A DNA stretch of 64,000 bases from a virus (lineage: Duplodnaviria; Heunggongvirae; Uroviricota; Caudoviricetes). Location: the IMG/VR virus record IMGVR_UViG_3300028832_000129, positions 11,528-75,527 of that record; one strand, 5' to 3'. The translations under genes were made by a program, and so were the position numbers. Shown piece by piece: positions 34,800 to 54,531 of the stretch. The notes beneath the pieces are model-generated. The model did not search any database, had not been told where the DNA came from, and was given only the letters and a program-made list of their open reading frames with translations. Positions within the stretch are counted from its first letter, which is position 1. Each line of letters begins with the position of its first letter.

Positions 34800-34803
34800 T
34801 AAT

Positions 34804-34874: not shown

Positions 34875-34877
34875 TAT

Positions 34878-34959: not shown

Positions 34960-34978
34960 CTAAACAAAGGAGGAATAT

Positions 34979-35416: not shown

Positions 35417-35425
35417 CCCGGGATA

Positions 35426-35507: not shown

Positions 35508-35513
35508 ACTATA

Positions 35514-35587: not shown

Positions 35588-35629
35588 TCTATTTGACCAT
35601 GTTTAGCAGAAAGGACTCCACTCGGGTCG

Positions 35630-35645
35630 ATTTTTGCTATATTTG
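35630..35645 (+). promoter_or_regulatory. Phage promoter motif TTTTTGCTATATTTGG.
   Basis: Exact motif at the start of a ~450-nt ORF-free structured region. Confidence 0.5.
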
Positions 35646-35703
35646 GTTAGCAAGAATTTCGTGCCAAGATATAAACAAAAACCACCAGGTTGACGTTTTT
35701 GCA

Positions 35704-35720
35704 GAAAATTGCTATATTTG
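35704..35720 (+). promoter_or_regulatory. Phage promoter motif AAAATTGCTATATTTGG.
   Basis: Second motif copy 60 nt downstream of the first. Followed by the repeated 20-mer AGATTGACAGTTCGGATGCG at 35751. Confidence 0.5.
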
Positions 35721-36088
35721 GTACACCGGGAAGCCCGTGAGGTTCCCCAGAAGATTGACAGTTCGGATGCGTTTCCTTTGCAGTTCGGGTTAAACTGCGC
35801 GTTGCAACCAACGATAGGTTGCTCGCATTTTGAAGATTTTACGAAATCTTACCCCGGCGGGAGGCGTCCCGCCCGAAGCCACGCGCTTTGGCGTGGTGGA
35901 ATACCTTTAGCATAAACGTGAGTGCGCCCGGGTTCGCAACCGGGAGGTGTCTTCTGCTCAGGAAGGCAAGGGAAATTAACTAATGAGTTCGGCGTGAGCC
36001 GGGACGGGCGGACGTATAGGGCTAGTTCCATTGCCCTTCTCCTTTTTGGTTGTGTCGAGGTCCCCCGTCCCGCTCGCGCCGTTCGCAT

Positions 36089-36161
36089 GGCGATGTCGTC
36101 TAGAGGCCTAGGACACAGGATTTTCATTCCTGGAACTCGGGTTCGAATCCCGGCATCGCTA
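36089..36161 (+). tRNA. tRNA-Glu(TTC).
   Basis: Glu-type D-arm TCGTCTAGAGGCCTAGGAC. Anticodon arm CAGGA-TTTTCAT-TCCTG. T-arm TCGGG-TTCGAAT-CCCGG. Acceptor GGCGATG/CATCGCT with G1·U72. Confidence 0.75.
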
Positions 36162-36169
36162 CTAATCAT

Positions 36170-36242
36170 CGCGGGATGGAGCAGTTGGTAGCTCGCGAGG
36201 CCCATAACCTCGAGGTCGTCGGTTCGAGTCCGACTCCCGCTA
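36170..36242 (+). tRNA. tRNA-Met(CAT), initiator-like.
   Basis: CGCGGGATGGAGCAGTTGGTAGCTCG CGAGG-CCCATAA-CCTCG AGGTC GTCGG-TTCGAGT-CCGAC TCCCGCT. Closely parallels E. coli tRNA-fMet, including an unpaired position 1-72. Confidence 0.75.
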
Positions 36243-36250
36243 CGAAACAT

Positions 36251-36355
36251 TGCCAAATGGCGGAAAGTGCATCGACGATGCCGTTAGACGCAGGGGAATC
36301 TAAGTCCCCGGCCCTCGCGCGAAAGGGTGTCCAGGTTCGAGTCCTGGTTTGGTAA
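36251..36355 (+). tRNA. Atypical long tRNA-like gene with a CUA (amber-reading) anticodon arm.
   Basis: Acceptor TGCCAAA/TTTGGTA (7 bp incl. G·U). T-arm CCAGG-TTCGAGT-CCTGG. Perfect anticodon arm GGGGA-ATCTAAG-TCCCC (anticodon CTA at 36300-36302). A ~16-nt palindromic hairpin (GCATCGACGATGC) is inserted in the D-region. Total ~105 nt. Confidence 0.4.
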
Positions 36356-36380
36356 CTATGATTTTGCCGTCGCTAAGACT

Positions 36381-36454
36381 GGGTGGGTAAGCTCAGGTGG
36401 TAGAGCTCGGGTGGAAAACAACCCGGGACACCGGTTCGAGTCCGGTTCTGTCCT
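36381..36454 (+). tRNA. tRNA-like or pseudo-tRNA with a possible 8-nt anticodon loop.
   Basis: D-arm TAAGCTCAGGTGGTAGAGCT and T-arm ACCGG-TTCGAGT-CCGGT are canonical. The acceptor GGGTGGG/TCTGTCC is mostly G·U. The anticodon stem CGGGT/ACCCG encloses GGAAAACA. Confidence 0.3.
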
Positions 36455-36579
36455 GTTGATTGCGGCGGAAGTGCCGGGAAGACGTCCCCGGCGCGGCGCT
36501 ATTAAGTCATTTTCGGATTAGGGCCCCGACGCACCAGCAAAACCGTTTGGTACCTATAGAAAATGACCGCCGTTCCCAT

Positions 36580-36668
36580 GGCCACGTAGCTTAGCAAGGT
36601 GGACGAGGCCTCGTCAGAGCGCCCGGCTAACCAGGCCGGGAGACGCCGGTTCGATTCCGGCCGTAGAT
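36580..36668 (+). tRNA. tRNA-like element with a hairpin insertion. Not resolvable by eye.
   Basis: 5' GGCCACG-TA-GCT..., a perfect inserted palindrome GACGAGG/CCTCGTC, CCCGGC-TAACCAG-GCCGGG arm and T-arm GCCGG-TTCGATT-CCGGC. The 3' acceptor does not pair cleanly. Confidence 0.25.
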
Positions 36669-37273
36669 TGGGACGGCAAACCTTTAACGACACAGTCGCC
36701 TGTTAGGCGAACCGCCCGAGAGCATGTTCCTGCTGCCGTATAATTTTCCGGCGGACGCTCTAGGGGGTCAGCAAAATGATGCCGTGTGTTAGGACGCACT
36801 TGGCAGCATAGAGAAGGTGGTCTCCGGAGGCCGGCGGACTCAGTCCCTGTTTCCGGTATGTGCTCTAGGGTAACGGCCGAACATGAAATCCCGTGGGCCG
36901 ACCCGTGACGGGGAATTAACGAAAGTCACGGAAGGCCCGGCGTGATTCTCGCGGGAGACGGCTGTGTCATACGTTTAGGCGCAAAGGGAGTTCCTATTGA
37001 AACTTCCAACAACAGTGACTTACTCCCAGCGCTTGCTTTTAGACACCAAGGCGGTTCCTACCCAAAGCTTGGTCTGCAAAACCGATTTACCGCCAGTGTC
37101 GCTTTTAAATGTGTACCCGGACGTATTTTTCGTTGTGGGTTGATGATTTGTGCCAATCCGAGTACATGAATTTGCGTGCCCAAACGAAGTTCCTCGTTTG
37201 ATGGTTGACTTACTTCCCGGGCACGCATTTTGTTTGATGAGTGCTAGAACGGTTGCTGATTTAGTTCATCTTT

Positions 37274-37348
37274 GCTCTCGTCGTCTAATGGAATTAGGAT
37301 TACGAGAATCCGAATCTTGTGATAGCAGTTCGAATCTGCTCGAGAGTA
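37274..37348 (+). tRNA. tRNA-Arg(CCG)-like.
   Basis: Acceptor GCTCTCG/CGAGAGT (G1·U72). Glu-like D-arm. Anticodon arm CGAGA-ATCCGAA-TCTTG. T-arm AGCAG-TTCGAAT-CTGCT. Confidence 0.55.
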
Positions 37349-37371
37349 CTATATTACCGTAGGAGATTTCA

Positions 37372-38232
37372 ATGAAGCGGAAATATATGCAAGTTACCAA
37401 GCAGCATCCCAAATTTAGGGCACTGATTACGCCATATGATGACTATCATTCGGCTGGCCCACGATTAAAATCTGATGGCCGGATGTATATAGATATACTA
37501 AAGAATGAAACGGATTGCTTTCTCGGTATGCTATATGCTCGGTATTTATTGGAAGTGAAGTTAGGACGGCGCTTGAGGGATGGTTATGTAGTAGACCATA
37601 TCGATGGGTGTAGCTGGAATGATGATATGACGAATTTACAGGAAATTCCTGCTGCTGATAACGAAAGAAAGGGAATATCTGGAATTAGGCTAGACATGCA
37701 ACACGCTCGCACGTTCATACAGATAAAATGCCCTTGGTGTGGTACATGGTTTGAAAAGCAGAAAACATCTATTAACGGTAAATTATCGTTTTGCTCAAGG
37801 GCATGCGTGTCGAAATATTATAGGTCGGACCGGGCATGCAAAAATGAAACGCGTACTATGCGGGCCGTGCCTGCACCGGATAGCAGCATAGTTCCTAAAC
37901 GCTATTCTGTTCCGTTCGAACAAGTATCTACTGTGTATTTTTATAGTGTCCGTGTTCCGACGTGTCTATGCGGTAATCCGATTTCTTCGAAGTCAAGCAT
38001 ATACTGTGACCAATGCTTGGATATGAAGGTAAAAGCTACCGTGGAACAAGCTGATATGGAAAGAAAAGCTATTGCGGACCGTATACGGTTGATATATCAA
38101 GAAGAAGGCAAAGTGCCTATGTGCAAGCTAGCTGGATACATGGGTTATAGTGACAAAGGACTTGCGAAGGCAATACTTAGGTTATTCGGTAAGCCGCATA
38201 AAGAGGTAATCAATTCGATATGCGGAAAATGA
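37372..38232 (+). CDS. HNH endonuclease (AP2/HNH_3-like homing endonuclease).
   Basis: YVVDHIDGCSWNDDMTNLQEIPAADNERKG is an HNH motif. Multiple CxxC pairs follow. AT-rich gene adjacent to tRNAs. Confidence 0.65.
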   Translation: MKRKYMQVTKQHPKFRALITPYDDYHSAGPRLKSDGRMYIDILKNETDCFLGMLYARYLLEVKLGRRLRDGYVVDHIDGCSWNDDMTNLQEIPAADNERKGISGIRLDMQHARTFIQIKCPWCGTWFEKQKTSINGKLSFCSRACVSKYYRSDRACKNETRTMRAVPAPDSSIVPKRYSVPFEQVSTVYFYSVRVPTCLCGNPISSKSSIYCDQCLDMKVKATVEQADMERKAIADRIRLIYQEEGKVPMCKLAGYMGYSDKGLAKAILRLFGKPHKEVINSICGK

Positions 38233-38255
38233 TGACAAATAAAATTTTGGCGTAA

Positions 38256-38418
38256 GCAAGGCCGCTTGTACATGTATCCAGGTTCAGGTACTTCCTGCTC
38301 GAACATCAAGAACCGGGGCATACGCCATTACCATTAGAAAGGGTTGACATTGGCAAGGCCGCTTGTTCTGCATCCAGGTTCAGGTACTTCCTGCGAACAT
38401 CAAAATACGGGGCATGTG
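38256..38418. repeat. Pair of ~65-nt direct repeats (38256-38323 and 38353-38418) separated by a TTGACA-containing spacer.
   Basis: GCAAGGCCGCTTGT(A/T)C(A/T)TG(T/C)ATCCAGGTTCAGGTACTTCCTGC(TC)GAACATCAA(G/A)A..CGGGGCAT occurs twice. Confidence 0.6.
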
Positions 38419-38606
38419 TCACCAGTCCAGCCGGGAGGACGCTCCCGGACGTAGCTCCACCCTGACGCCGTTACCTCCCCTGGTAGAAAACACGGCTATA
38501 CGGGTTCCGACCCGCCTAAGGTACAATATGGCGGGGTGCCGGGCAACACCGGTATCGTATGGTGCGGACGGATTTCCGCTCTCCGGGTGTGTGAGCGGAA
38601 CCTTTT

Positions 38607-38679
38607 TCCGGCTTAGCTCAGCTGGTAGAGCACATCATTCGTAATGATGGGGTCCGCCGTTCGAGCCGGCGAGCCGGAG
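38607..38679 (+). tRNA. tRNA-Thr(CGT).
   Basis: TCCGGCTTAGCTCAGCTGGTAGAGCA CATCA-TTCGTAA-TGATG GGGTC CGCCG-TTCGAGC-CGGCG AGCCGGA. Confidence 0.85.
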
Positions 38680-38776
38680 CGAACATTGAGATAGAATGGC
38701 TACCGCGCGTCTGAGATTTCTGGATATTCGCGTGGCAAGTTCCTTGGCCCGACAGGAATCTAGGGTCATGCTCTTC

Positions 38777-39135
38777 GGGGGTGCTTGGTTTCGACTGGGC
38801 ATCGGACTGTGGAGACCTCACACGAAGTTGGTCTGTGGCTTCGTAAAAACGGACCGAAAAGATAAATGCTGACAATGCATTCGCCTACGCCGTTGCTGCT
38901 TAATCGGTAGCACGCCGTTGCCCGGGTCAAGTGGGATGAATAAAGCCCGGGACCAAGTAGATAAGTCCCGAATTTAGCCGTGAGTTACTGGTCGTAGACC
39001 GGCTATCTTACACTGGACCAGGACCCCTCAAGGATACATCTCCCCGGGCAACAGGTCAGGGCCCAAAACGATGGATTGTGATACGGTTGAAACGGAATGG
39101 CGTTTAGGACAGGGGTTCGACTCCCCTCACCTCCA
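38777..39135 (+). ncRNA. ssrA: tmRNA (transfer-messenger RNA).
   Basis: 5' GGGGGTGCTTGGTTTCGACTGGGC parallels E. coli GGGGCTGATTCTGGATTCGACGGG. 3' tRNA-like domain GGACAGGGGTTCGACTCCCCTCACCTCCA (T-arm plus acceptor pairing with the 5' GGGGGTG). Internal tag reading frame GCT GAC AAT GCA TTC GCC TAC GCC GTT GCT GCT TAA = ADNAFAYAVAA-stop at 38868-38903. Length 359 nt. Confidence 0.8.
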
Positions 39136-39380
39136 CGAAATTTACGTCCTGCTGCCGGTAGGACCGCCCTTCAGCACGGGGTAGAACGCGAGTACGACCA
39201 TGGGTGTGGCCGGCTTGCGCGAAGGCGGTGGACTAAAATCTTGGCACGATGCCATATCACCAATCCCACTCCGGGAAAGGTTGCAGGCGTGTAGCCGCGT
39301 ACCGGCCACGCGAGCGTAAAGCGGTAAGGGCCCGCTAATAGGCCCAGTGTGTTTGAAAAGTCTCGACGGTGATGAGGTAA

Positions 39381-39397
39381 TTGTCCTATATTTGAAT
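39381..39397 (+). promoter_or_regulatory. Promoter motif variant TTGTCCTATATTTGAAT.
   Basis: Matches the TATATTTG core inside the ORF-free region between the tmRNA and the next tRNA block. Confidence 0.35.
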
Positions 39398-39847
39398 ATG
39401 GCGTAGTCTGGCTCATTTAGAAGCCATAAAACATACCAAATCAACACTTTGGGTGGACATCGCCTAGCATAAGTTGCGGAACAGTGGCTAGGGTAACTTT
39501 CTGGTAATCCTAGTAATGCGCCGTCGAGACTCTTAGTTTGGGTGTACCCGTGATTAGCCTAGGTTTAAATTGCGGGAGCCCATTAGGGACGCGCCGGGTA
39601 TGCACCGGCAAGCCCCGACGTCGGGTGCGCCCGTCGAAACGACGTAAAACAAGACAGAGTGCGGCTACGTCCTGGTAACGTGGAGCATTAAGGACCCGTT
39701 GGCCACACTGGTTACAGTGGCCTAGCCGGCTGGGAGTTAGCCGGATGGTTTCCGCATCGGCGGAATGAGTACAGTCCCCGCAAGGACACCGAGAGGGAAC
39801 TGGGCGATGACGCGTTCTAGAAGCTAGGATATCGCCGTTCCCACCAT

Positions 39848-39924
39848 GTTGCGGTAGCTTAATGGTTAGCGCATGCCTGGACTGCAGCCGGCATGAGATG
39901 GTGGTCCGAATCCACCCCGTGACA
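39848..39924 (+). tRNA. tRNA-like gene with an extended or bulged anticodon stem. Identity unresolved.
   Basis: Acceptor GTTGCGG/CCGTGAC (two G·U). D-arm TAGCTTAATGGTTAGC. T-arm GGTGG-TCCGAAT-CCACC. Central CATGCC(T)GG-ACTGCAG-CCGGCATG helix. Confidence 0.35.
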
Positions 39925-39938
39925 CTAACAGAAATTTT

Positions 39939-40014
39939 GGACCGGTAGCTCAGTTGGTCTTAGAGCAGCTGACTCATAACCAGCGGGTCCCTGGTTCAAA
40001 TCCAGGCCGGTCCA
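39939..40014 (+). tRNA. tRNA-Met(CAT), elongator or lysidine-Ile type.
   Basis: Perfect acceptor GGACCGG/CCGGTCC. Anticodon arm GCTGA-CTCATAA-CCAGC. T-arm CCTGG-TTCAAAT-CCAGG. Confidence 0.8.
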
Positions 40015-40024
40015 CTACTGTTTC

Positions 40025-40100
40025 GCCTCCTTAGCTCAGTAGGATTTAGAGCGTCGCGCTACGAACGCGGAGGTCCCAGGTTCGAGCCCTGGAGGAGGTA
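40025..40100 (+). tRNA. tRNA-Arg(ACG).
   Basis: GCCTCCTTAGCTCAGTAGGATTTAGAGCG TCGCG-CTACGAA-CGCGG AGGTC CCAGG-TTCGAGC-CCTGG AGGAGGT. Confidence 0.8.
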
Positions 40101-40313
40101 CTAAAATCCTGGTCTTCTAAATGAGCCTACGCTAAAAACGGGGGTGCTTAGGAATCCGGCGGCAGATGGGCGGGCGACGGCCGGCCAAATACCGCGGGCG
40201 ATGCTGGTTCTACTAACTCCAGCGCAGGTCGCGTTTCATGGTGCGCATAGCTCAACTGGTAGAGCCACGGCTTGTGGAGCCGTACGTTGTCGGTTCGAAA
40301 CCGGCTGTGCACC
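40040..40313 (+). tRNA. tRNA-His(GTG), with an encoded G-1.
   Basis: G-GTGCGCA TA GCTC AACTGGTA GAGC C ACGGC-TTGTGGA-GCCGT ... GTCGG-TTCGAAA-CCGGC TGTGCAC C. The extra 5' G pairs with the C73 discriminator, as is typical of tRNA-His. Confidence 0.85.
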
Positions 40314-40329
40314 CTACACTTCTCATCTT

Positions 40330-40402
40330 GTCTCGATAGTTAAACAGGATATAACTAGTCCCTCCTAAGGACTGATTCCACGTTCGAGTCGTGGTCGGGA
40401 TA
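40330..40402 (+). tRNA. tRNA-Arg(CCT).
   Basis: Acceptor GTCTCGA/TCGGGAT (two G·U). Anticodon arm AGTCC-CTCCTAA-GGACT. T-arm CCACG-TTCGAGT-CGTGG. Confidence 0.75.
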
Positions 40403-40413
40403 CTAAGACATAA

Positions 40414-40502
40414 GGAGGGTTGGCAGAGTTGGTCTATCGCACCCCGGTGCTAACGGGGAGGGGCCCAAAAAGCCCCCACAGGTTCGAATCCTGTACCCTC
40501 CT
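40414..40502 (+). tRNA. tRNA-Ser(GCT), class II.
   Basis: Acceptor GGAGGGT/ACCCTCC. Anticodon arm CCCCG-GTGCTAA-CGGGG. Long variable arm AGGGGCCCAAAAAGCCCCC. T-arm ACAGG-TTCGAAT-CCTGT. Confidence 0.85.
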
Positions 40503-40534
40503 CTACAGAATAAACTTCGTAACTGGAGTAAATT

Positions 40535-40831
40535 ATGGACATCACGTCGTTTTCTATATGGAAATTCAGGTTTATCGAAGGGTACCTGCAGGATATGCAC
40601 GCGTACGACGTGCATACCACGAAGTATGTCGACCACCGGACGTCGGATACAGCATGGATTAGGTATGACACCGCCAAGGATGTCGCCACTATCGAGCGGG
40701 AGGGCCTCACGCTGGACTGCAAGTTCGGCGAACTTGAAAAGACACTGAAGGACCTCGGGATGTACCGGGAGCGGCCATTGGGCGAGAGACACAGCCTGGC
40801 CGGACCGCAGCATGACGAGGAGAAACCGTAG
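40535..40831 (+). CDS. Hypothetical protein, 98 aa.
   Basis: Intact ORF following the tRNA block. Two further tiny ORFs (28-aa basic peptide at 40850-40936; ~53-aa Cys-rich zinc-ribbon-like peptide from ~40953) follow and are not listed separately. Confidence 0.4.
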   Translation: MDITSFSIWKFRFIEGYLQDMHAYDVHTTKYVDHRTSDTAWIRYDTAKDVATIEREGLTLDCKFGELEKTLKDLGMYRERPLGERHSLAGPQHDEEKP

Positions 40832-41124
40832 AGGTATCAATGAAAGGCGTATCACTAAAGTCAAACCCCGCGTTCGAGCGGGCTTTGAAGCGTTTCCTGC
40901 GGGAGCAGAAACGGAAGAAAAAGTAGCATGGCGGAGGACCTATGGTAACATGCGATATTTGCGGGGAACCGCGTGAGTGCAAGATGTACAGGTGCACGTT
41001 CGGCCAGTATACCGAATTCATGTGCCTCTGTGACGATTGCGTGAAGGTGCAGGAGAAGGAAGGCCCGGTTGTCGAGGACAAGTCGTGCAGCCCGGGATAT
41101 TAACCAATCAAAAAGGAGTCTACC

Positions 41125-41382
41125 ATGACCAAAGAAGAAGTTTCCAAGAAGGTTATCGCGCACATCGCACGACTTCTCGGCATGCAACAGCATGAAGTGA
41201 AGCCCGAGAGCCTCGTAGGAGCTGACCTCGGGGCCGATTCACTCGACCTGGTAGAGATTGTCATGGCGGTCGAGGACGAATTCGAAATCGAGGTTCTCGA
41301 CAGCGAGATGGCAATGCTTTCGACCGTGCAGGACTGGATTAACCTGGCCGCCGAAAAGGTCGGCGCACAAAATAAAGATTAA
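41125..41382 (+). CDS. Acyl carrier protein.
   Basis: AAAAGGAG RBS. DLGADSLDLVEIVMAVEDEFEIE is the canonical ACP helix II with the phosphopantetheinylated Ser in the DSL motif. 85 aa. Confidence 0.8.
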   Translation: MTKEEVSKKVIAHIARLLGMQQHEVKPESLVGADLGADSLDLVEIVMAVEDEFEIEVLDSEMAMLSTVQDWINLAAEKVGAQNKD

Positions 41383-41387
41383 GGACG

Positions 41388-41461
41388 CGGGGTGTAGCTC
41401 AGCCTGGTAGAGCGCATGCCTTGGGCGCATGAGGCCGTGGGTTCGAATCCCGCTACCCCGA
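41388..41461 (+). tRNA. tRNA-Pro(TGG).
   Basis: C1-G72 acceptor CGGGGTG/TACCCCG. Anticodon arm CATGC-CTTGGGC-GCATG. T-arm GTGGG-TTCGAAT-CCCGC. Confidence 0.8.
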
Positions 41462-41753
41462 GTATCCCACAGAATTTTCGCGCCGATTCCCCTAGAATAT
41501 TCACCCGGCGCGAACATGGGAGCCCGACCATGGATAAGACGGGCAGCATTGAGATTGCCGCCGCATTGATTAAATTGGGTTCAAGTCCCGGCGGTCGGGA
41601 AAGTGTACGCGAGTCCACCGGTACCGGCAGCCAAGAAGGAAACAGGATTCCCGGCGGCATGGCACTAAACTGTCTGCCACAGAAATGACGGTGAGACCTT
41701 CGGCAGTTAATACGGGAAAGTCCAGGAGATGTCTTTTGGTAAAGCTGCCATTT

Positions 41754-41826
41754 TCCGGTGTAGCTCAGTTGGTAGAGCACCCGATTTGTAATCGGGCGGT
41801 CGGGAGTTCGAGCCTCTCCACCGGAG
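41754..41826 (+). tRNA. tRNA-Thr(TGT).
   Basis: TCCGGTGTAGCTCAGTTGGTAGAGCA CCCGA-TTTGTAA-TCGGG CGGTC GGGAG-TTCGAGC-CTCTC CACCGGA. Confidence 0.85.
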
Positions 41827-41835
41827 CTAACTTAT

Positions 41836-41908
41836 GGCCTCGTCGAATAATGGCTAGTTCGCTGCCCTCTCAAGGCGGAAATTCGGGTTCGAAACCCGAC
41901 GTGGCTAC
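41836..41908 (+). tRNA. tRNA-Glu(CTC), copy 1.
   Basis: Glu-type D-arm TCGAATAATGGCTAGTTC. Anticodon arm CTGCC-CTCTCAA-GGCGG. T-arm TCGGG-TTCGAAA-CCCGA. Acceptor GGCCTCG/CGTGGCT with one mismatch. Confidence 0.6.
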
Positions 41909-41931
41909 TACAGGAAAACAAGCTAATTTAT

Positions 41932-42004
41932 GGCTCCGTCGAATAACGGTTCAGTTCGTCGCCCTCTCAAGGCGGAAATTCGGGTTCGAGTCCCGACGGG
42001 GCTA
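41932..42004 (+). tRNA. tRNA-Glu(CTC), copy 2 (tandem near-duplicate).
   Basis: GGCTCCGTCGAATAACGGTTCAGTTCG TCGCC-CTCTCAA-GGCGG AAAT TCGGG-TTCGAGT-CCCGA CGGGGCT. Confidence 0.6.
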
Positions 42005-42020
42005 CTAAGGAGAAAACACG

Positions 42021-42494
42021 ATGCATACATTGCACTTGATGATTGGCATTCCCGGGTGCGGCAAGTCTACGTACGCCAGGAAACTCGCGGAGTATACCGG
42101 GGGACGCATAGTGTCGTCCGACGGAATCCGCAAGGAGCTCACGGGTACCGAAGAATACCTGTATCCCGAGCTGAACACGAAGGTGTTCGGCATTTTCGAG
42201 TCCCGGGTCGCGGAATGGATTAAGGACACCGACGTGATAGCGGACGCCACCAACATACACGTGAAGGACTGGAAGAAGTACGTCGGCCTGTGCCCGGAAG
42301 GGACCGTGGCCAAGGCTTACTGGTTCCTCGTAGGTCCGGACATAGCCATGGAGAGGATGGAAGGGCGCGACCGCAAGGTCCCGAGGGAAGTCGTTGAGCG
42401 CATGTGGGAAACCATGTTCCAGAACAGGAAGTACCTCCCGGAATATTTCAAGGAAGGCTGCATACAGATAATCAATCCGGACGAAAAGATATAG
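42021..42494 (+). CDS. P-loop polynucleotide-kinase-like protein (AAA_33/PNK family).
   Basis: AGGAGAAAACACGATG RBS. Walker A MIGIPGCGKSTYA followed by SSDGIRKEL, as in the T4 Pnk kinase domain. 157 aa kinase-only architecture. Adjacent to the tRNA genes. Confidence 0.55.
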   Translation: MHTLHLMIGIPGCGKSTYARKLAEYTGGRIVSSDGIRKELTGTEEYLYPELNTKVFGIFESRVAEWIKDTDVIADATNIHVKDWKKYVGLCPEGTVAKAYWFLVGPDIAMERMEGRDRKVPREVVERMWETMFQNRKYLPEYFKEGCIQIINPDEKI

Positions 42495-42518
42495 TTTGTT
42501 GGCAAAAGAGAGGTTACA

Positions 42519-42707
42519 ATGAAGAAGCACAAGACGGAATTCGTGGAAGAGACAGAAGAACAGAAGCAGGCCCGCTGGGACAAGCAGAAGAAGGCTGCCA
42601 GGGGCATGGCCAAGCTGTGCGGCATCGACCTCAAGAAGCTCGCCAAGGAACGTGAACGCAATTACCGGGAGAAGATGTCCCTGAACGGCTCCCGATACAG
42701 TTACTAG
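42519..42707 (+). CDS. Small basic hypothetical protein, 62 aa.
   Basis: AGAGAGGTTACAATG RBS. Lys/Arg-rich. Confidence 0.35.
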   Translation: MKKHKTEFVEETEEQKQARWDKQKKAARGMAKLCGIDLKKLAKERERNYREKMSLNGSRYSY

Positions 42708-42715
42708 GGACTACC

Positions 42716-42798
42716 GGAGGGTTAGGCTAACTGGTAAGTCAGCGGTCTTGAAAACCGCCGCGGGAAACTGCTTGGGGGTTCGAGTCCCTCACCCTCCG
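42716..42798 (+). tRNA. tRNA-Ser(TGA), class II.
   Basis: Acceptor GGAGGGT/ACCCTCC. Anticodon arm GCGGT-CTTGAAA-ACCGC. Long variable arm. T-arm GGGGG-TTCGAGT-CCCTC. Confidence 0.8.
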
Positions 42799-42835
42799 CG
42801 AATTTTACGCATCCGGAACTGTCCGTAAATTTCCA

Positions 42836-45960: not shown

Positions 45961-46281
45961 ATGATTAAGGAAAAGATTTACAGGCTGATGTTCCATAACT
46001 TTATCAGTAACCGAATCCGCCAGATTGCGTGCGGGTGGCGCCGAGAGCTCCGCCACGGCGTGTCCATCTGGTACAAGCCGGTGAAGCACTATCCGGGCTA
46101 CGGGGACTACGACTACGAGCCGATGTTCGAGCGCGCCGTGCGCACCGTCAGGCAGAACCGGAAGAAGTTCCCGGGAAAGCGCGTGGCCGTCGAGGTCGAG
46201 GTGTTCTACTCGGGCGGACGCCCGGGCATCGGTACCAGGCTGGTACAGTACAGAATCAAGCCGTACAGGAAAGTGTTCTAG
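45961..46281 (+). CDS. Hypothetical protein, ~106 aa.
   Basis: ATG at 45961 (MIKEKIYRL). The track's GTG at 45916 overlaps the promoter motif. Confidence 0.4.
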   Translation: MIKEKIYRLMFHNFISNRIRQIACGWRRELRHGVSIWYKPVKHYPGYGDYDYEPMFERAVRTVRQNRKKFPGKRVAVEVEVFYSGGRPGIGTRLVQYRIKPYRKVF

Positions 46282-46331
46282 TGGACTACCGCAAGGAACA
46301 GCTGGCAGGACAGGCCCTCAGGAAGGCCGTC

Positions 46332-48119
46332 ATGATGATGCAGAAGACCGCCCCCGGTCTCCTGCCCGTCTACATGGGTATCACCGGGATTCCCACGGAC
46401 AACCCGAACGTGGCCGTGCGTGTCGGGGTCAACGGCGGCACCCCGGTCATGGAATACAACGTGGACTTCGTCGCCGCCCTGGAGCCGTCGCTTCTCGGGG
46501 CGATAGTCTACATGGAGTGCGAGCGCATAGCCCTGCACCACTGCGACAGGCGCAAGCAGGAGCCGCTCGACATGCTGAAGCTGGCGAGCGACGTGGTCGT
46601 CGCCGAATACGCCAGGAAGCTCGTGGACACTTCCGTGGGCAAGAACCTGGAGATTGTCAACAGGCTGTTCCCCAGCTACTGGAACTACTGGCCGGTGCTG
46701 CAGAAGCACGGGTTCAACCCGGAGACCGACCTCACCCTCGAGAAGCTCTTCAAGATATTCAAGGAAGAGTACGCCACGATGAAGCCCGAGGAGGAAGAGG
46801 AGGACGGGGAACAGGAGAAGGGGCAGTCCGACGGCAAGTCCAAGGACGAGCACGAGACACAGTCGAAGGGCACCAAGGACGACGCCAGGCAGCGGGAAGA
46901 TAGCAAGGAAGGCAGCAAGAACGGCAGCGAGAATGCCGAAACTTCCGGTTCCCCCGGTGAATCCGGCGAGCAGGGCGACGGCAAGGAAGACGGCAGTTCC
47001 GGCGAGGACGGCAAGGACAAGGGAGAGGAAGATTCCGGCGAGGACGGCGACGGCGGCGAGGGAGAATCCGGTGAGGGCGAAAGCGAATCCGGAGAGAATT
47101 CGGACAAGGATTCCTCCGGGGAACCCGGCGACGGGGAGAGCGACGGGCAGGACGGAAGCCAGGACGGCACCCCCGAAGAAAGCGACGACGACCCGGGAAC
47201 TCCCGGGAAAGGCGGAGGCGACGGCTCGAGCGGCGAAGGTGCCGACGGCGGTTCCGAACCGGGAAACGACCCGGGCGACGGGGCCGACGGCGACGGGGAA
47301 GGAAATGACGGCGACGGCAACTGCGAGGACGGCTCCGAGGGTGATTCCGGGAGCCCGTCCGAAGACATAGACGGCGGTTCCGGGCAGGGCGAACAGAAGA
47401 AGGACGATTTCGACAGCATGTCAAGGTACTTCTCCCTGACGAACGCCGGAAGCGACCTTTCCCGATGGGGGCAGGACGACGTGGCGAGGGACGCTGTCAC
47501 CGCCACGGTCAATGACGCACTGGACAAGGGTATGTTCGACAGGGTGCGCGGGCAGCTGCCGGTAATGCTCAGGAACGCCAACCGGGTGAAGGTCGACAAG
47601 GAGGCCATGTTCAGGAAGTTCATGACCAGCCTGCAAGACGACGAGCGTGAGGAGACCTGGAGCAGGCGCAACAGGAAGTTCATCCACTACGGAATGATTG
47701 CCCCGGGCCACGTATACAGGGAGACCCAGAGGATACTGTTCTGCGTCGACGTGTCCGGCTCGATGTACCAGGGGGACTCCATAGTCAACTGCCTTACAGT
47801 CATGGAGAACGTCGTGAACGGGCTGTCCATCGACCTCGTCTACTGGGACGCGGTGTGCAGCCCGGTGTTCACCGCGCCGAAGAGCATAAGGGACATGGCG
47901 ATATACGGCGGGGGCCGCACCGACCCGGAATGCGTCCTGCGGAAGCTGGGGCCCGACAGGTACAAGTACGACGGGCTGATATTCCTCACGGACTGCATAT
48001 TCACCTGGAGGCGTCCGCCGAGACACAAGCAGATTATGATTCTGCGCACTCACGGGGAGCAGGAGTTCCCGGAATGGTGCGTATACAAGGACGACCTGGA
48101 GAAGTTCATTGGACATTAG
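46332..48119 (+). CDS. VWA-domain protein with a ~200-aa acidic D/E/G/S-rich low-complexity spacer.
   Basis: ATGATGATG at 46332 preceded by AGGAAGG. The track's 46029 start overlaps the previous gene. C-terminal ILFCVDVSGSM is a MIDAS DxSxS motif of von Willebrand A domains. The central region encoded at about nt 46800-47400 is almost pure E/D/G/S. Confidence 0.6.
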   Translation: MMMQKTAPGLLPVYMGITGIPTDNPNVAVRVGVNGGTPVMEYNVDFVAALEPSLLGAIVYMECERIALHHCDRRKQEPLDMLKLASDVVVAEYARKLVDTSVGKNLEIVNRLFPSYWNYWPVLQKHGFNPETDLTLEKLFKIFKEEYATMKPEEEEEDGEQEKGQSDGKSKDEHETQSKGTKDDARQREDSKEGSKNGSENAETSGSPGESGEQGDGKEDGSSGEDGKDKGEEDSGEDGDGGEGESGEGESESGENSDKDSSGEPGDGESDGQDGSQDGTPEESDDDPGTPGKGGGDGSSGEGADGGSEPGNDPGDGADGDGEGNDGDGNCEDGSEGDSGSPSEDIDGGSGQGEQKKDDFDSMSRYFSLTNAGSDLSRWGQDDVARDAVTATVNDALDKGMFDRVRGQLPVMLRNANRVKVDKEAMFRKFMTSLQDDEREETWSRRNRKFIHYGMIAPGHVYRETQRILFCVDVSGSMYQGDSIVNCLTVMENVVNGLSIDLVYWDAVCSPVFTAPKSIRDMAIYGGGRTDPECVLRKLGPDRYKYDGLIFLTDCIFTWRRPPRHKQIMILRTHGEQEFPEWCVYKDDLEKFIGH

Positions 48120-48171: not shown

Positions 48172-49428
48172 ATGGAAGAAATGGTTATCAAGGAAGCGGC
48201 CGAGCTGCCGCAGGTTGCAGAAGGATTGAAGCTCGCCAGGGCCATTAACGACCTTGGTTACGAGGCATACCTTGTTGGCGGTTGCGTAAGGGACCTTGCC
48301 CGCTGGAAGCTCGGGCTGGACTCCGAGCCGGGAATCCACGACGTTGACCTGGCAACGAACATGCCGGCGGACGAGATGGCGAAACACTTCAGGACGGCCA
48401 GCAACAACGGCGAGAAGCACGGTACGATACTGGTGTTCATGGACGGCGAGCCTTTCGAGGTGACGAGGTTCCGTGCGGACGGGGACTACAGCGACGGGAG
48501 GCACCCGGACTCGGTGGCGTTCGCCGATACATTCGAGGAGGACACCAGACGGCGCGACTTCACTATGAACGCCATGGGCATGGACGCCGACTGCAGGATA
48601 GTCGACTATCACGGCGGAGTGGAGTCGATACGCTCGGGGGTCCTTTCTACCGTGGGCGACCCGGTGGACCGTTTCAACGAGGACGCGCTGAGGATACTCC
48701 GTGCAGGCAGGTTTTCCTCCAAGTTCGGTATGAAGCCCGACCTGGTGATGAACTCGGCATGCCACGCGCTTGCCACGCGGCTGAAGTTCCTTTCGATGGA
48801 GCGGGTACACGACGAGTTCACCAAGTGTTCCACGGCGAAGGCGTTCGCCGGCATGATGCACTTCCTCGAGGACGGCATAGGCAAGGTGCTATCCGACGCT
48901 ATAGACTGGAAGGCCGCCGCCAGGGCCGTGGACAACTGGGCGGTATACCACCAGAAGCCATGGGACACGGTGACGGGTATGGCGATACTGTTCATGTCGT
49001 GCAGGTCGATGGCCGAGTTCGAGATGCGCAAGTTCAAGTGCACCGTAGAGGAAATAGACGCGTACAAGTACGCCAAGGTCATGACGATGGAATACCAGTC
49101 CGGGAGGATGGACCTTGTCGGGATGGTGGACCTGGTCGAGAACCGCAGGTGGCCGTATTTCGTCGGCGTGGTCAACGCGTATGGCGGGAAGTGTGCAATC
49201 GACTCCGCGCAGGAGGAGAAGCTCCTGTCGATGGGGAGGTCGTACCCTACGCCCAAGGACATATCGTCGGCGATGAAGGATGCCGGTGTCGAACAGGGGC
49301 CGCTGTTCGGCCGGATACTCCGCCGGGTGCGGCTCTGCGTCTACAAGCGGAAGGTGGCTGGACGCGGCGCGGTAGACCGGGAGTATCTCGATAAACTGGT
49401 TGCCGAAGTAATAAAAGAGTGCAGCTAA
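48172..49428 (+). CDS. cca: tRNA nucleotidyltransferase (CCA-adding enzyme).
   Basis: Head-domain motifs LVGGCVRDL and HDVDLAT, plus the class II signature RRDFTMNA. 418 aa. Confidence 0.8.
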   Translation: MEEMVIKEAAELPQVAEGLKLARAINDLGYEAYLVGGCVRDLARWKLGLDSEPGIHDVDLATNMPADEMAKHFRTASNNGEKHGTILVFMDGEPFEVTRFRADGDYSDGRHPDSVAFADTFEEDTRRRDFTMNAMGMDADCRIVDYHGGVESIRSGVLSTVGDPVDRFNEDALRILRAGRFSSKFGMKPDLVMNSACHALATRLKFLSMERVHDEFTKCSTAKAFAGMMHFLEDGIGKVLSDAIDWKAAARAVDNWAVYHQKPWDTVTGMAILFMSCRSMAEFEMRKFKCTVEEIDAYKYAKVMTMEYQSGRMDLVGMVDLVENRRWPYFVGVVNAYGGKCAIDSAQEEKLLSMGRSYPTPKDISSAMKDAGVEQGPLFGRILRRVRLCVYKRKVAGRGAVDREYLDKLVAEVIKECS

Positions 49429-49432
49429 CCGT

Positions 49433-49717
49433 ATGACACCCGTCGGCATCGCCTGTTGGATAATGGGAATCCTTTCCGCAATTTCGTTCGCGTTCAACCT
49501 GTATCCGCAGTACCGTCTCGCGAAGAGGACACACAAGACAGGGCTCGCATACGGCTTCTTCGTACTCGCCTACGTAGGCAACATCGGGGCCGCCATATTC
49601 GTGCTCTACACGAACCTGCAGACCGGGGATTTCCAGTGGCCGCTGTACGGCAACTACGGGGTTGCGACCTACTTCACGACCCGCCTGTTGATAATGAGGA
49701 TAAGGTTCGGGAAATAA
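49433..49717 (+). CDS. Small membrane protein, 94 aa.
   Basis: Three hydrophobic helices (IACWIMGILSAISFAF, FFVLAYVGNIGAAIFVLY, YGVATYFTTRLLIM). Confidence 0.45.
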   Translation: MTPVGIACWIMGILSAISFAFNLYPQYRLAKRTHKTGLAYGFFVLAYVGNIGAAIFVLYTNLQTGDFQWPLYGNYGVATYFTTRLLIMRIRFGK

Positions 49718-49767: not shown

Positions 49768-49785
49768 CTTTTACTATATTTGCTG
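49768..49785 (+). promoter_or_regulatory. Phage promoter motif variant CTTTTACTATATTTGCTG, placed to drive the IscB leader RNA.
   Basis: ACTATATTTG core ~300 nt upstream of the iscB ATG with no ORF in between. Confidence 0.5.
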
Positions 49786-50088
49786 TAGGACCCATGGAGT
49801 AATCAACTACTCACCGGCTAAAGACTGGTGGGTTTGAGGAAACCCCTCGAACCCATAGTTGATTAGGCTAAGTGATAGGAGGCAACTCCTTGAACTACGT
49901 TGATAGAATCATGGCACCCCGGAATGTTTGTCCAAGTTCCCCGCTCTGCCGTATGTCATTAAAAGTCCTGATGGGTAGGGACGGTGTGGCATACCTAGTA
50001 AGTTCTTCCAACATTGCCGATGGACACCCACAGGGAGAAATCCCTGCATTACCTATTAAGTTAGGTTAAGACAAAAAGGAAACGATAG
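49786..50088 (+). ncRNA. Putative omega-RNA (OMEGA guide RNA) scaffold upstream of iscB.
   Basis: ~300-nt ORF-free, promoter-preceded leader with multiple stable stem-loops (e.g. AATCAACTA...TAGTTGATT; GGGTTTGAGGAAACCCC) immediately 5' of and abutting iscB. This is the canonical position of IscB omega-RNAs. Confidence 0.5.
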
Positions 50089-51357
50089 ATGGTATATGTT
50101 TTGAGCATTGATGGCAAACCGCTGATGCCAACCGAACGGTTTGGCAGGGTTCGCCGTCTGTTGAAAGCACGTAAGGCCTTTATCGTAAACTACCACCCGT
50201 TCACAATCAAGCTAACCTACAAGTGTCCCGACCGGACACAGGAGGTATCACTGGGTGTAGATGCAGGCAGCAAGCACGTAGGCCTGTCTGCTACCACAAA
50301 GAAGAAAGTATTGTTCGAGGCTCAACTGGAATTACGGAATGACATCGTAAAGAAGCTGGCTACCAGACGCGAGTTCCGTAGGACTAGACGCTACCGGAAA
50401 ACTAGATATCGTAAAGATAGATTTCTTAACCGTACCAAGAAGGAAGGATGGCTCGCTCCATCTGTTAAGCACAAGGTATGGGCACACCTATGGAACATCG
50501 TTAGAATCAAACGAATACTGCCTATAAGCAAGATAACCATAGAGGTGGCACAGTTCGATACCCAGTTGCTCAAGGCTCAAGAACTAGGCTTGCCGGTACC
50601 CCAAGGCACGGACTACCAGAGAGGCGAACAGCTTGGATTCTGGAATGTAAGGGAGTACGTGCTGTTCCGTGATGACCACAAATGCCAATGCTGCAAGGGA
50701 AAGTCGGGAGATTCCGTTCTCAACGTGCATCATATAGAGTCTCGGAAGACCGGAGGGAATGCGCCCAACAACCTTGTGACTCTTTGTGAGACTTGCCACA
50801 AGAAATATCATAAGGGTGAAATCAGGCTCCCTGCATCTATCAGGCGTGGTGCAAGTTATAAGGATGCTGCATTTATGGGCATTATCCGAAAGGAAGTATA
50901 CCGAATGTCTCGGATAGTGAACAATACGCTTACATGTCCTGTAGACATTACCTATGGCTACATCACCAAGAATACCAGAATCCGGTGTGGATTGCCTAAA
51001 GAACATACTATTGATGCTAGATGCATCAGCGGAAATCCGATGGCTAAAAGCAATGGAACAACTTATATAATTAAGCCTTTGAGACACAATAACCGACAGC
51101 TACACAAGGCATCTATCTTATCTGGAGGCATACGTAAGAACAACCAGGCTCCTAAAGAAGTGTTCGGTTTCCGCATTATGGATACCGTACTATACAATGG
51201 ACAGGTATGCTATGTCAATGGCCGTAGGGCGTCCGGCTATTTCTCCCTGGTAGATATCTACGGGAAAGTTTTAACCAACTCTGTCAGTTACAGGAAACTG
51301 GCCAGAATCAACCACAATAACTACATCATAGGAGGCGCAATTCCTCTCACCCACTAA
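50089..51357 (+). CDS. iscB: IscB, RNA-guided RuvC/HNH nuclease (OMEGA system; IS200/IS605-type Cas9 ancestor).
   Basis: N-terminal PLMP domain MVYVLSIDGKPLMPTERFGRVRRLLKARKAFIV. RuvC-I LGVDAGSKHVGLS. Arg-rich bridge RREFRRTRRYRKTRYRKDR. RuvC-II ITIEVAQFD. HNH CQCCKG...VHHIESRKTGGNAPNNLVTLCETCHKKYH. RuvC-III HTIDARCISGN. 422 aa. Confidence 0.85.
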   Translation: MVYVLSIDGKPLMPTERFGRVRRLLKARKAFIVNYHPFTIKLTYKCPDRTQEVSLGVDAGSKHVGLSATTKKKVLFEAQLELRNDIVKKLATRREFRRTRRYRKTRYRKDRFLNRTKKEGWLAPSVKHKVWAHLWNIVRIKRILPISKITIEVAQFDTQLLKAQELGLPVPQGTDYQRGEQLGFWNVREYVLFRDDHKCQCCKGKSGDSVLNVHHIESRKTGGNAPNNLVTLCETCHKKYHKGEIRLPASIRRGASYKDAAFMGIIRKEVYRMSRIVNNTLTCPVDITYGYITKNTRIRCGLPKEHTIDARCISGNPMAKSNGTTYIIKPLRHNNRQLHKASILSGGIRKNNQAPKEVFGFRIMDTVLYNGQVCYVNGRRASGYFSLVDIYGKVLTNSVSYRKLARINHNNYIIGGAIPLTH

Positions 51358-51363
51358 AGATGG

Positions 51364-52650
51364 GTGAGTTTCCTTGCGTATTTTATTATGATTACTGACA
51401 AGACAGGCATAAGCTTTGCCCAGTTCTTTGACTTGATGGTATGCTGCGGCCCTGATTCGGCCGTATTGCTGGAAGGTGACACCGGTATAGGCAAGACGAC
51501 CATTTCCAGGTACTTCGCAGAGAAGATTGTGAAGCTTCCTTTCTGCGTGATACAGGTTTCCGAGAACACCGACATGACCGACGTGTTCGGGCTACCAGAC
51601 TTCGCCAACGGCCGCACCGTATACAAGCCGCCCTCATGGTATCTCGGGCCCGACACCAAGTGCGTGCTGCTCCTTGACGAGGTCAACCGTAACAAGACGG
51701 TCATGAAGGGCCTGATGCGTCTCGCCACCGACCACAGGATTGGCGACCTTACGTTACCTGACGGCAGCTACGTCCTTGGTGCAATCAACCCGGAATACGG
51801 CTCGCTCTACCAGGTCGTCGAGATGGACCCGGCACACAGGGCCCGTTTCCAGGTTGCACAGCTGAACCCGACCATGCCCGAATGGGTGAAGTTCGCCCGA
51901 GAGGAAGGGCTGCCGAACGTGGTAATCGAGTACGTCCAATCGCACGAACTCGACCTGGACACCTTCAAGAACCAGGAGAACGTGAACCAGGCCGAGGGAC
52001 AGTTCTACCACCACGTGCTGCCGTGCCGCCGCCAGTGGCACCAGTTCGCCAAGCAGGTCGTACGCGGCGAGAACTTCAAGGGCACCGGCATATCCCGCTT
52101 CGACCCGAAGCACTTCGACGACGCCGAGAACTTCATGTACGCGATGGCTGCAGGCCGTCTCGGCACCGGTGTAGCCGAGCGTTTCACCAAGTTCTACTAC
52201 AATTTCAAGTTCAGGAACGACGACTGCTGGATTACGGCTGAGCAGCTCCTTTTCGGAACGGACAAGGACTGGGCACCCGGCGGGAAGATGGTCAAGGAGC
52301 TCAAGCGGATGGCGGACAAGGATATCCCGGGGCTCACCAGTCTCGGCGAGGAGCTGCTCGACCTGACCGCACGCAACGAGGACAAGATGTGGAACGACTT
52401 CCACAGCGGTCCCAGCTCCACCGCGAAGGCATACGGGACCAACATATTCAAGTTCATGTACACCTGCCCGCACGAAGTCGTGTGCAGCCTGTACTATTCT
52501 AAGATTGCCCCGGCGAACCAGGAGGCCAAGCGCAGGAAGGCGCTGGCCAAGCAGGGAGTCGGCAAGGACGACGGGCCGAAGTGGGAGAACCTGATGTGTC
52601 TCGGGTTCCCCAAGCTGGCCGAGCTACTCAAGGACATAGTCAACCCGTAA
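51364..52650 (+). CDS. AAA+ ATPase, MoxR/AAA_5-like.
   Basis: Walker A GDTGIGKTT and Walker B VLLLDEVNRN. GTG start at 51364 (alternative ATG at 51388). 428 aa. Confidence 0.65.
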   Translation: MSFLAYFIMITDKTGISFAQFFDLMVCCGPDSAVLLEGDTGIGKTTISRYFAEKIVKLPFCVIQVSENTDMTDVFGLPDFANGRTVYKPPSWYLGPDTKCVLLLDEVNRNKTVMKGLMRLATDHRIGDLTLPDGSYVLGAINPEYGSLYQVVEMDPAHRARFQVAQLNPTMPEWVKFAREEGLPNVVIEYVQSHELDLDTFKNQENVNQAEGQFYHHVLPCRRQWHQFAKQVVRGENFKGTGISRFDPKHFDDAENFMYAMAAGRLGTGVAERFTKFYYNFKFRNDDCWITAEQLLFGTDKDWAPGGKMVKELKRMADKDIPGLTSLGEELLDLTARNEDKMWNDFHSGPSSTAKAYGTNIFKFMYTCPHEVVCSLYYSKIAPANQEAKRRKALAKQGVGKDDGPKWENLMCLGFPKLAELLKDIVNP

Positions 52651-54073: not shown

Positions 54074-54099
54074 ACCCGCGCCGCACGCGCGGGTTTTTG
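54074..54099 (+). terminator. Rho-independent terminator fused to the promoter motif.
   Basis: ACCCGCGCC-gcac-GCGCGGGT plus TTTTT, running into TGCTATATTTGGC (motif at 54094-54110). Confidence 0.6.
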
Positions 54100-54152
54100 C
54101 TATATTTGGCATAACGATACAATACAATTCACGCCCTTCAGGGCGTGGGTAG

Positions 54153-54491
54153 TTGACCATATCAGTCAAGGAGTTACACATGTACGCAATCATTCGTTCC
54201 ACCACAAAGCATGGGACGCATGCGCAGGAGCGCCCCCAGATGATATGCCACGGGGACTTCAAGAGCCTCCTGGTTCCGCGCCTCTGCGAGCAGATTGAGG
54301 GTTGCCTCAAGAAGGGGGCGTCGCTCTATGCCAGTATTCCCGGCGCTGCCGAGGAGAGGATTACTCCATCCAACAATATCTACGGGGTTATCTCGGCAAT
54401 CGACCGCGGATGCGACCATATCGTCATTGATGTTCCCGGTGAATACGAGAGACAGTCGTACAGCGTGCATTTCGTAATCGAGGAACTATAG
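54153..54491 (+). CDS. Hypothetical protein, 112 aa.
   Basis: Intact ORF after the promoter motif at 54094-54110. Confidence 0.45.
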   Translation: MTISVKELHMYAIIRSTTKHGTHAQERPQMICHGDFKSLLVPRLCEQIEGCLKKGASLYASIPGAAEERITPSNNIYGVISAIDRGCDHIVIDVPGEYERQSYSVHFVIEEL

Positions 54492-54515
54492 TTCTGCAGA
54501 CACCGTCCTGCGGGA

Positions 54516-54531
54516 CTTTTGCTATATTTGC
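54516..54531 (+). promoter_or_regulatory. Phage promoter motif CTTTTGCTATATTTGC.
   Basis: Exact core. The 54571 gene starts ~40 nt downstream. Confidence 0.5.

Follow-up and report, generated by a model that had tools for sequence, protein, structure and literature searches.

Our analysis of a 64,000-nucleotide (nt) stretch of a Caudoviricetes virus genome (IMG/VR record IMGVR_UViG_3300028832_000129, positions 11,528 to 75,527; hereafter the window) has identified an insertion sequence (IS) that carries the RNA-guided nuclease gene iscB and its omega RNA, and that lies immediately before the gene of a MoxR-like ATPase of the AAA_5 family. Cas9 descends from IscB/omega RNA elements, which also serve as compact genome editors. 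Judged by its sequence features, the module is a 1586-bp insertion sequence of the ISC2 type with an intact iscB, an omega RNA and hairpin ends. We put at about 0.8 the probability that it is a mobile ISC2 element lodged in the 5' untranslated region (UTR) of the AAA_5 gene, where RNA-guided cutting of element-free alleles would provide for its homing and retention. A preliminary description of the window, made from the sequence alone, had taken the module for a domesticated or co-opted nuclease rather than a passing transposon, and had named homing among its suggested roles.

The preliminary description had seen no IS200/IS605 ends. These ends are set by other copies of the element and by empty sites, and a hairpin with the loop CTAAAGA stands at each of them. 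A 186-kb viral contig (L002) holds an element 88% identical to the one in the window at an unrelated site, and the identity spans position 49802, which is position 1 of the HEARO RNA model, to position 51387. Further copies, 82-87% identical, were located through close relatives of the IscB protein (85-91% protein identity) at six distinct sites in phage-like contigs (L023, L024, L026, L061, L062, and L065), so that seven sites outside the window hold copies that are 82-88% identical. A pattern scan of IMG/VR with the conserved 3' motif of iscB returned 29 loci, only one of which (L046, from the same contig as L002) belongs to this family. Elsewhere in the window we found neither a second IscB copy nor protein-less element ends. 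The GC content of the element is 0.464 and that of its flanks is 0.58-0.59. The left flank of every copy diverges from the first base beyond ATCAACTAC, and the guide consequently differs from copy to copy. On the right, the eight independent insertions are followed by ATGAA (four cases), ATGGA (two), ATGAT, and ATGAC, all of which read ATGR, and there is no target-site duplication. These right flanks agree with the ISC2 target, where insertion falls between N and ATGA (Kapitonov, Makarova and Koonin 2016, PMC4810608), and with the reverse complement, ATGAA, of the transposon-adjacent motif (TAM) TTCAT of GstIscB from ISGst5 (PMC10055086).

The hairpin at the iscB end, first flagged in a scan for terminator-like structures, keeps 96.9% of its cells paired across the alignment with two compensatory pairs (23-45% when the partners are slid), and its DNA fold reaches -12.2 kcal/mol (z = -5.76). 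The stem of the hairpin at the omega RNA end covaries among copies (alignment columns 14-30); it has one G-T pair in the window and is weak as a DNA fold. It has been reported that the omega RNA sits at the transposon's right end (Meers et al., PMC10055086); in terms of the transposase TnpA, the hairpin at the omega RNA side would thus be the right end and the one overlapping the iscB stop codon the left end.

Several observations on other copies deserve mention. In L064 (positions 1-1400; Logan SRR16020839_90744) the 3' hairpin and the end are deleted, the similarity stops 43 nt short of the normal end, and the 427-aa IscB open reading frame (ORF) has an overlap with the gene that follows it; this copy may be immobilised. 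The contigs L028 (positions 1-24) and L026 (4658-4717) share the same element and right flank and have different left flanks, hence different guides, which may reflect recombination at the element or a chimeric assembly. TnpB genes (OrfB_IS605/Cas12f1-like_TNB) lie a few kb from the IscB copy in L026 (1-852 and 8382-9788) and at the equivalent places in L027 and L028; therefore, these phages host several OMEGA elements.

By every sequence comparison that we made, the 422-aa ORF is an intact and genuine IscB, as the preliminary description had proposed from its motifs. It matches the Pfam families RRXRR (PF14239; 1.2e-59, residues 2-179) and HNH (PF01844; 1.9e-08), and among solved structures it finds IscB chains (11hr, 7utn, and 7xht, OgeuIscB) at 1e-45 to 1e-47, ahead of IsrB (only 6e-22) and Cas9d-type proteins (1e-8 to 1e-12). 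A family profile lifts the match with solved IscB to 5e-64, spanning residues 1-345. The PLMP motif occupies residues 11-14; RuvC-I contributes D58, RuvC-II E152, and RuvC-III H306 and D309, whereas the HNH domain contributes C199, C202, H214, H215, C233, C236, and H237. Alignments of 15 and of 33 relatives show no substitution at any of the catalytic and zinc residues, and the PLMP motif is likewise invariant in the family. D58 and H214/H215 are the counterparts of D58 and H209/H210 in GstIscB, which is inactivated by the changes D58A/H209A/H210A (PMC10055086). The ratio of nonsynonymous to synonymous substitution rates (dN/dS) of iscB is 0.07-0.12 against the seven family copies, with dS up to 0.5-1.2, and the ORF is thus under purifying selection. 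The C-terminal 77 residues (346-422) give no sequence or profile alignment to the TAM-interacting domain of OgeuIscB. An AlphaFold2 model from a 33-sequence alignment has a mean predicted local distance difference test score (pLDDT) of 53 and a predicted template modelling score of 0.40; residues 360-410 are beta-rich with a pLDDT near 75, and the quality of the model is too poor for the C-terminal domain to be judged from it.

The leader upstream of iscB, 287 nt long, holds the omega RNA that the preliminary description had expected there. The covariance model of the HEARO RNA, which is the IscB omega RNA (PMC10055086; PMC13565253), matches it over its full length (positions 1-211 of 211; E = 3e-26), and the score is on par with those of its relatives. 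In an alignment of 12 homologues, 36 of the 54 predicted pairs are kept through two-sided changes. Two more hairpins at 50035-50075 are conserved within the close family, an extra hairpin covaries (alignment columns 272-287), and the Rfam model is reported to miss downstream structural elements (Meers et al., PMC10055086); the omega RNA probably extends through these two hairpins to about position 50075. A sub-threshold Rfam match to the DUF2815 RNA covers positions 50032-50091 (22 bits against 41, E = 0.35); rather than a DUF2815 RNA, the hairpins there probably represent the omega RNA's 3' part, which the Rfam model leaves out. This match and one to RF_site5 were dismissed as below threshold (E = 0.24-0.35). 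Directly before position 1 of the HEARO model stands the putative guide, TAGGACCCATGGAGTA, whose length of 16 nt we take by analogy from OgeuIscB. With as many as three mismatches allowed, the window contains no other match to it, and its own insertion site is thus the only one that it fits. An exact search with a 20-mer over the guide found no match in viral and metagenome contig collections, which also lack the contig of the window itself, so that this negative carries no information.

In related phages the same site is empty. A viral contig of 222 kb (L001), with an ATPase 73% identical to that of the window, lacks IscB and otherwise keeps the gene order: a large protein is followed by a PolyA_pol-type nucleotidyltransferase, a PQ-loop protein of 94 aa, and the AAA_5 ATPase. 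Its PQ-loop gene is followed by a hairpin and then by the promoter motif, which stands 8 nt ahead of the ATPase ATG. Closer still are five element-free sister contigs (L079, L082, L083, L085, and L088, of which L088 stems from bovine gut metagenome data) with flanks 96-97% identical to those of the window and an identical PQ-loop protein, where the ATPase gene directly follows the PQ-loop gene. Their alleles read ...TTTTACTATATTTG(CAC or TCC)TAGGACCCATGGAGTA ATGACGA ATGATTACTG..., with a GGAG Shine-Dalgarno sequence 9 nt before the ATG of the ATPase. The guide is matched at 16 of 16 positions in all five and is followed by ATGAC. On account of this perfect match and of ATGAC, a TAM natively used by the L024 copy, the element-free strains are the predicted substrates of the nuclease. 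It is important to note that these true empty sites are 7 nt longer than a reconstructed junction and were reached only by looking up the neighbouring PQ-loop protein; the reconstructed junction itself, CCATGGAGTAATGATTAC, gave nine matches, none of them phage-homologous by blastn or tblastx, which we regard as chance matches. Outside this site of this phage the exact IscB protein of the window does not occur; the contigs that hold it, from several samples, are 99.6-99.98% identical to the window. The related contigs derive from bovine-gut and rumen data; one or the other allele is present in ERZ27257207, ERZ27256849, ERZ27257203, ERZ28019088, ERZ28653831, SRR33127809, SRR33127811, SRR8543131, ERZ909607, and JGI 3300028797 and 3300033463.

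The comparison with the empty alleles also accounts for the promoter. The motif TTTTNCTANATTTG (14 nt, TTTTGCTATATTTG) has 12 copies in the window, all on the plus strand, where 0.15 would be expected; a copy directly ahead of the co-oriented module had been described before, and this part of the description stands. Usually a terminator-like hairpin precedes the motif and a start codon or a tRNA follows it 8-45 nt later. The tRNA-Gly gene at 28632 starts 9 nt past a copy, a spacing that fits a transcription start a few nucleotides downstream of the motif, and the 3' half of the motif presumably corresponds to the Bacteroidota -7 box TAnnTTTG. A sigma-70 promoter scan around the element gave no more than chance. 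The motif is present at the same place in L001 and in the five sister contigs, and the copy before the element is therefore the pre-existing promoter of the AAA_5 gene; the element now parts the gene from both its promoter and its Shine-Dalgarno sequence. The module adjoins a promoter because it landed in the 5' UTR of the AAA_5 gene, before the start codon, and the promoter can no longer count as the sign of co-option that it was taken for. Nor is such adjacency a general property of the family, since the motif has no match in L002; several other copies likewise have no obvious promoter nearby.

The same comparison, together with gene calls, moves the start of the ATPase from the GTG at 51364, as previously given, to the ATG at 51388, so that its start codon is part of the TAM. 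At six of the eight independent sites a co-oriented ORF of 55-420 aa starts with the target ATG; the other two sites are intergenic. The element needs ATGA and must spare genes in a densely coding phage genome; presumably it survives mainly at start codons. Such a preference for start codons would account for the syntenic look of the element among ordinary phage genes. The preliminary description had further suggested an insertion between a VWA protein gene and the MoxR-like gene as a normally adjacent pair. The insertion is borne out; the pair is not, as two genes lie between the two even in element-free phages, and the supposed VWA protein, a 612-aa product, has only a sub-threshold DUF2201_N match. 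Table 1 includes the features of the locus.

Table 1. Features of the iscB locus and of the neighbouring genes, in window coordinates.
Feature	Position	Strand	Remarks
Non-autonomous ISC2 element (IS200/IS605 superfamily)	49802-51387	+	1586 bp; holds the omega RNA and iscB, with a subterminal hairpin near each end
Omega RNA scaffold, Rfam HEARO (RF02033)	49802-50031	+	122.2 bits; gathering score 83
iscB gene	50089-51357	+	422 aa; PLMP, split RuvC, arginine-rich bridge helix, HNH, C-terminal domain predicted to be beta-rich
Putative guide segment TAGGACCCATGGAGTA	49786-49801	+	16 nt of phage DNA, abutting HEARO position 1
Transposon-adjacent motif ATGAT	51388-51392	+	Its ATG is the AAA_5 start codon
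Subterminal hairpin, omega RNA end, CACCGG-CTAAAGA-CTGGTG	49812-49830	+	Within the first omega RNA stem
Subterminal hairpin, iscB end, CTCACCCA-CTAAAGA-TGGGTGAG	51346-51368	+	Overlaps the iscB stop codon
Phage promoter motif copy TTTTACTATATTTG	49769-49782	+	19 nt before the omega RNA scaffold
AAA_5 (MoxR-like) ATPase gene	51388-52650	+	Pfam AAA_5, 2.5e-11
PQ-loop gene	49433-49717		Between the 612-aa protein and IscB
CCA/poly(A)-polymerase-type gene	48172-49428		PolyA_pol match
Gene of the 612-aa protein	46281-48119		Long acidic, low-complexity centre rich in Gly/Ser/Asp/Glu; sub-threshold DUF2201_N match

Based on these observations, we infer that the most likely function of the system is RNA-guided cutting of element-free alleles, which would give both homing and retention; among the roles suggested earlier, homing would be the one that best applies here. 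The captured phage promoter would start transcription near position 49787, about 5 nt past the motif, a start that is presumably also consistent with what is generally known of Bacteroidota promoters. The primary transcript would then open with about 15 nt of phage flank as its guide and run on through the omega RNA scaffold into the iscB mRNA. The complex of IscB and RNA would recognise the uninterrupted allele, in which TAGGACCCATGGAGTA is followed by the TAM ATGA, and would leave its own locus alone, in which ATCA instead of ATGA stands behind the target. An element-free genome in the same cell would be cut, either that of a co-infecting sister strain or a copy stripped of the element by a TnpA of the host, and recombinational repair from an element-bearing genome would copy the element in, which amounts to homing or retention. 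Transposition to new ATGA sites would require a Y1 TnpA in trans. It has been reported that IscB, like TnpB, cuts donor joints and promotes retention of its element (Meers et al. 2023, PMC10055086), and homing into co-infecting phages or plasmids appears as a conceptual category for OMEGA systems in the table of a 2026 review (PMC13565253).

Several points weigh against this interpretation. First, the filled contigs are a single near-clonal lineage and hence give no direct sign of recent spread by homing. Second, filled and empty alleles come from different samples and their flanks differ by 3-4%; among the contigs compared, no sample with both alleles was seen. Given these two circumstances, we put the homing step itself at roughly even odds. 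Third, no Y1 TnpA turned up: tblastn searches with two Y1_Tnp sequences, whose family Pfam confirmed, gave no match in the window, as had been described before, or in any of the related loci compared, for which reason the element is classed as non-autonomous, as are most ISC elements (PMC4810608; PMC9755519). Fourth, the G-T pair in the hairpin at the omega RNA side might weaken recognition by TnpA. Fifth, the transcription start, the length of the guide, and the TAM are all deduced. Finally, the seven nucleotides ATGACGA (L079:4369-4375), which lie between two tandem ATGA motifs, are present in all five empty alleles and not in the filled one, so that the filled and empty alleles differ by more than the element. 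Possible sources of the loss are slippage at the ATGA repeat before or after insertion, recombination between adjacent insertions, or a transposase using an alternative motif; the allele forms that bear on this difference are GGAGTA-IS-ATGACGAATGATT, GGAGTAATGACGA-IS-ATGATT, and an element-free allele that lacks ATGACGA.

Some of these same points would be expected if the element were an inert passenger: having arrived recently and being neutral or mildly harmful, with its nuclease and RNA silent or inactive, it would persist only by hitch-hiking in one lineage. The near-clonality of the filled contigs, with no sign of spread between strains, the weakness of one hairpin as DNA, the 7 nt lost at the site, and a downstream gene cut off from its Shine-Dalgarno sequence all fit such a history. 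However, the ORF is intact with all its catalytic residues, the omega RNA scores like its relatives, a strong phage promoter lies immediately upstream, and dN/dS across the family is 0.07-0.12. We regard an inert passenger as improbable, with something like one chance in ten.

Slightly less probable again is the domesticated phage weapon favoured by the preliminary description, in which a co-opted IscB on a phage promoter would attack competing phages, plasmids, or the host. It can appeal to the genuine promoter upstream, to the co-orientation with phage genes, to the lack of tnpA in the window, to the purifying selection on iscB, and to the recurrence of the exact protein at the same site across several samples; furthermore, cutting an element-free sister would also exclude a competitor, so that this explanation and homing partly overlap. 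The features that a domesticated system would lead us to look for are a guide against a foreign replicon, lost ends, and fixation in the lineage, whereas in this locus the guide is 16 nt of the element's own flank with no match beyond the insertion site, the TAM and the two ends of the transposon are still intact, and the element is missing from sister strains that are 96-97% identical as well as from L001. In addition, the same family occupies seven other sites with other guides at N-ATGA targets, the GC content (46%) is foreign to the phage, and the insertion into the 5' UTR explains the promoter adjacency, which several other copies lack. A protein-only HNH homing endonuclease behind an ordinary structured 5' UTR, with no RNA guidance, is very improbable: GenBank does label the phage homologues 'HNH endonuclease' and free-standing HNH genes are common in phages (PMC13565253), but the protein has PLMP/RRXRR and a split RuvC and matches solved IscB over residues 1-345, so that the plain HNH enzyme lacking these folds, named in the preliminary description as the finding that would count against an IscB, is not what is encoded, and the leader is a full-length, covarying HEARO RNA.

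The interpretation as a mobile element that cuts its empty alleles is also consistent with what is known of related systems. As in the ISC2 transposons (PMC4810608), a lone iscB without tnpA is found in an element within the range of about 1.3-1.7 kb, with subterminal imperfect hairpins, no target-site duplication, insertion 5' of ATGA, and a (G/A)TCA-type 5' terminus; the window differs from them in that the element lies in a phage genome, in that the target ATG is a start codon at six of eight sites, and in the 7 missing nucleotides. ISGst5 of Geobacillus stearothermophilus (PMC10055086) likewise has a HEARO RNA upstream of iscB at its right end, a guide taken from flanking DNA, a TAM (TTCAT) that is the reverse complement of ATGAA, the catalytic residues D58 and HH, and a proposed role in cutting the element-free joint and thus restoring the element. 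Its activity has been measured, whereas that of the window element is predicted; ISGst5 lies on a chromosome, in a genome that also encodes its cognate TnpA, and where its target would be a sister chromosome, the likely one in our case is a sister phage in the same infected cell. OgeuIscB (7utn, 7xht, and 8csz) is the best match in the structure database (1e-45 with the single sequence, 1e-61 with a profile) and has the same domain order over residues 1-345; it differs in length (496 aa against 422) and in a C-terminal TAM-interacting region to which no sequence alignment could be made. Its TAM is NWRRNA (PMC12660989), and the right flanks of all eight elements fit the NWRR part.

IscB homologues were found in 32 GenBank phage records. 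At least Clostridium phage c-st (CST143) and Ralstonia phage Claudette (gp57) have homologues of 31-40% identity, annotated only as 'HNH endonuclease', which like that of the window have a full-length HEARO RNA upstream and are co-oriented with phage genes; unlike it, they are distant members of the family, and in c-st a truncated transposase ORF adjoins IscB. This phage also carries a RAGATH-18 RNA, an IS607-type TnpB guide RNA (L089:179-239; 64 bits), just downstream of an annotated transposase ORF and about 1 kb upstream of IscB and its HEARO RNA; the truncated transposase ORF follows IscB. The free-standing homing endonucleases SegF, SegB, and Mob of T-even phages provide the parallel on the side of classical phage biology. 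There, too, a nuclease gene lies between conserved phage genes, and the window element is predicted, like them, to cut a co-infecting allele that lacks it and to spread by recombinational repair. Unlike these enzymes, it would recognise its target by an RNA guide and a TAM, and it has transposon ends and can in principle transpose.

Regarding the surroundings of the element, the 612-aa protein is called as two ORFs (191 and 233 aa) in L079 and L083, and its repeat region therefore varies across strains. The window also contains 34 tRNA genes that cover most amino acids (28632-42799) and a transfer-messenger RNA at 38777-39138 with the tag ADNAFAYAVAA; this set is unusually large for a phage and fits a huge-phage genome. 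A 409-bp cassette (54109-54516, with a 103-aa ORF at 54180-54491) lies between copies of the promoter motif at 54095-54108 and 54517-54530. It is present in the window, L082, and L085 and missing from L079 and L083, where a single 14-nt copy of the motif stays, and it looks as if it had been gained or lost through recombination between the promoter repeats.

The components of the locus are of known kinds: judged by those defining features that can be assessed in silico, it holds an ISC2 element with its IscB/omega RNA pair. To our knowledge, only engineered Escherichia coli systems have demonstrated the natural role of IscB, the cutting of the element-free allele, after which the element is restored or spread by recombination. 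In our literature search no analysis of IscB homing in phages turned up; a TnpB gene drive in plasmids has already been published (PMC11870625). The modest addition made here is a natural pair of filled and empty alleles, together with the placement of the element between a promoter and a start codon. The locus offers a natural test case, as one lineage is filled and its sisters are empty with a perfect guide match and a TAM, and a defined phage promoter that should yield the guide without processing. The family offers numerous naturally occurring, close variants of a 422-aa IscB whose predicted TAM is of the ATGA type, of a kind that phage records label only as 'HNH endonuclease'. More tentatively, and with somewhat less than even confidence, we suggest that this ISC2 family may live in phages chiefly by RNA-guided homing, acting as a natural gene drive among co-infecting strains. 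Its ATGA target would direct it to start codons and stop-start junctions of co-oriented genes, where it would borrow a promoter for a transcript that already joins guide and scaffold, leave the downstream ORF intact, and rarely need TnpA. If phage-to-phage homing were demonstrated, it would tie the OMEGA systems to the classical homing endonucleases of phages and to marker exclusion.

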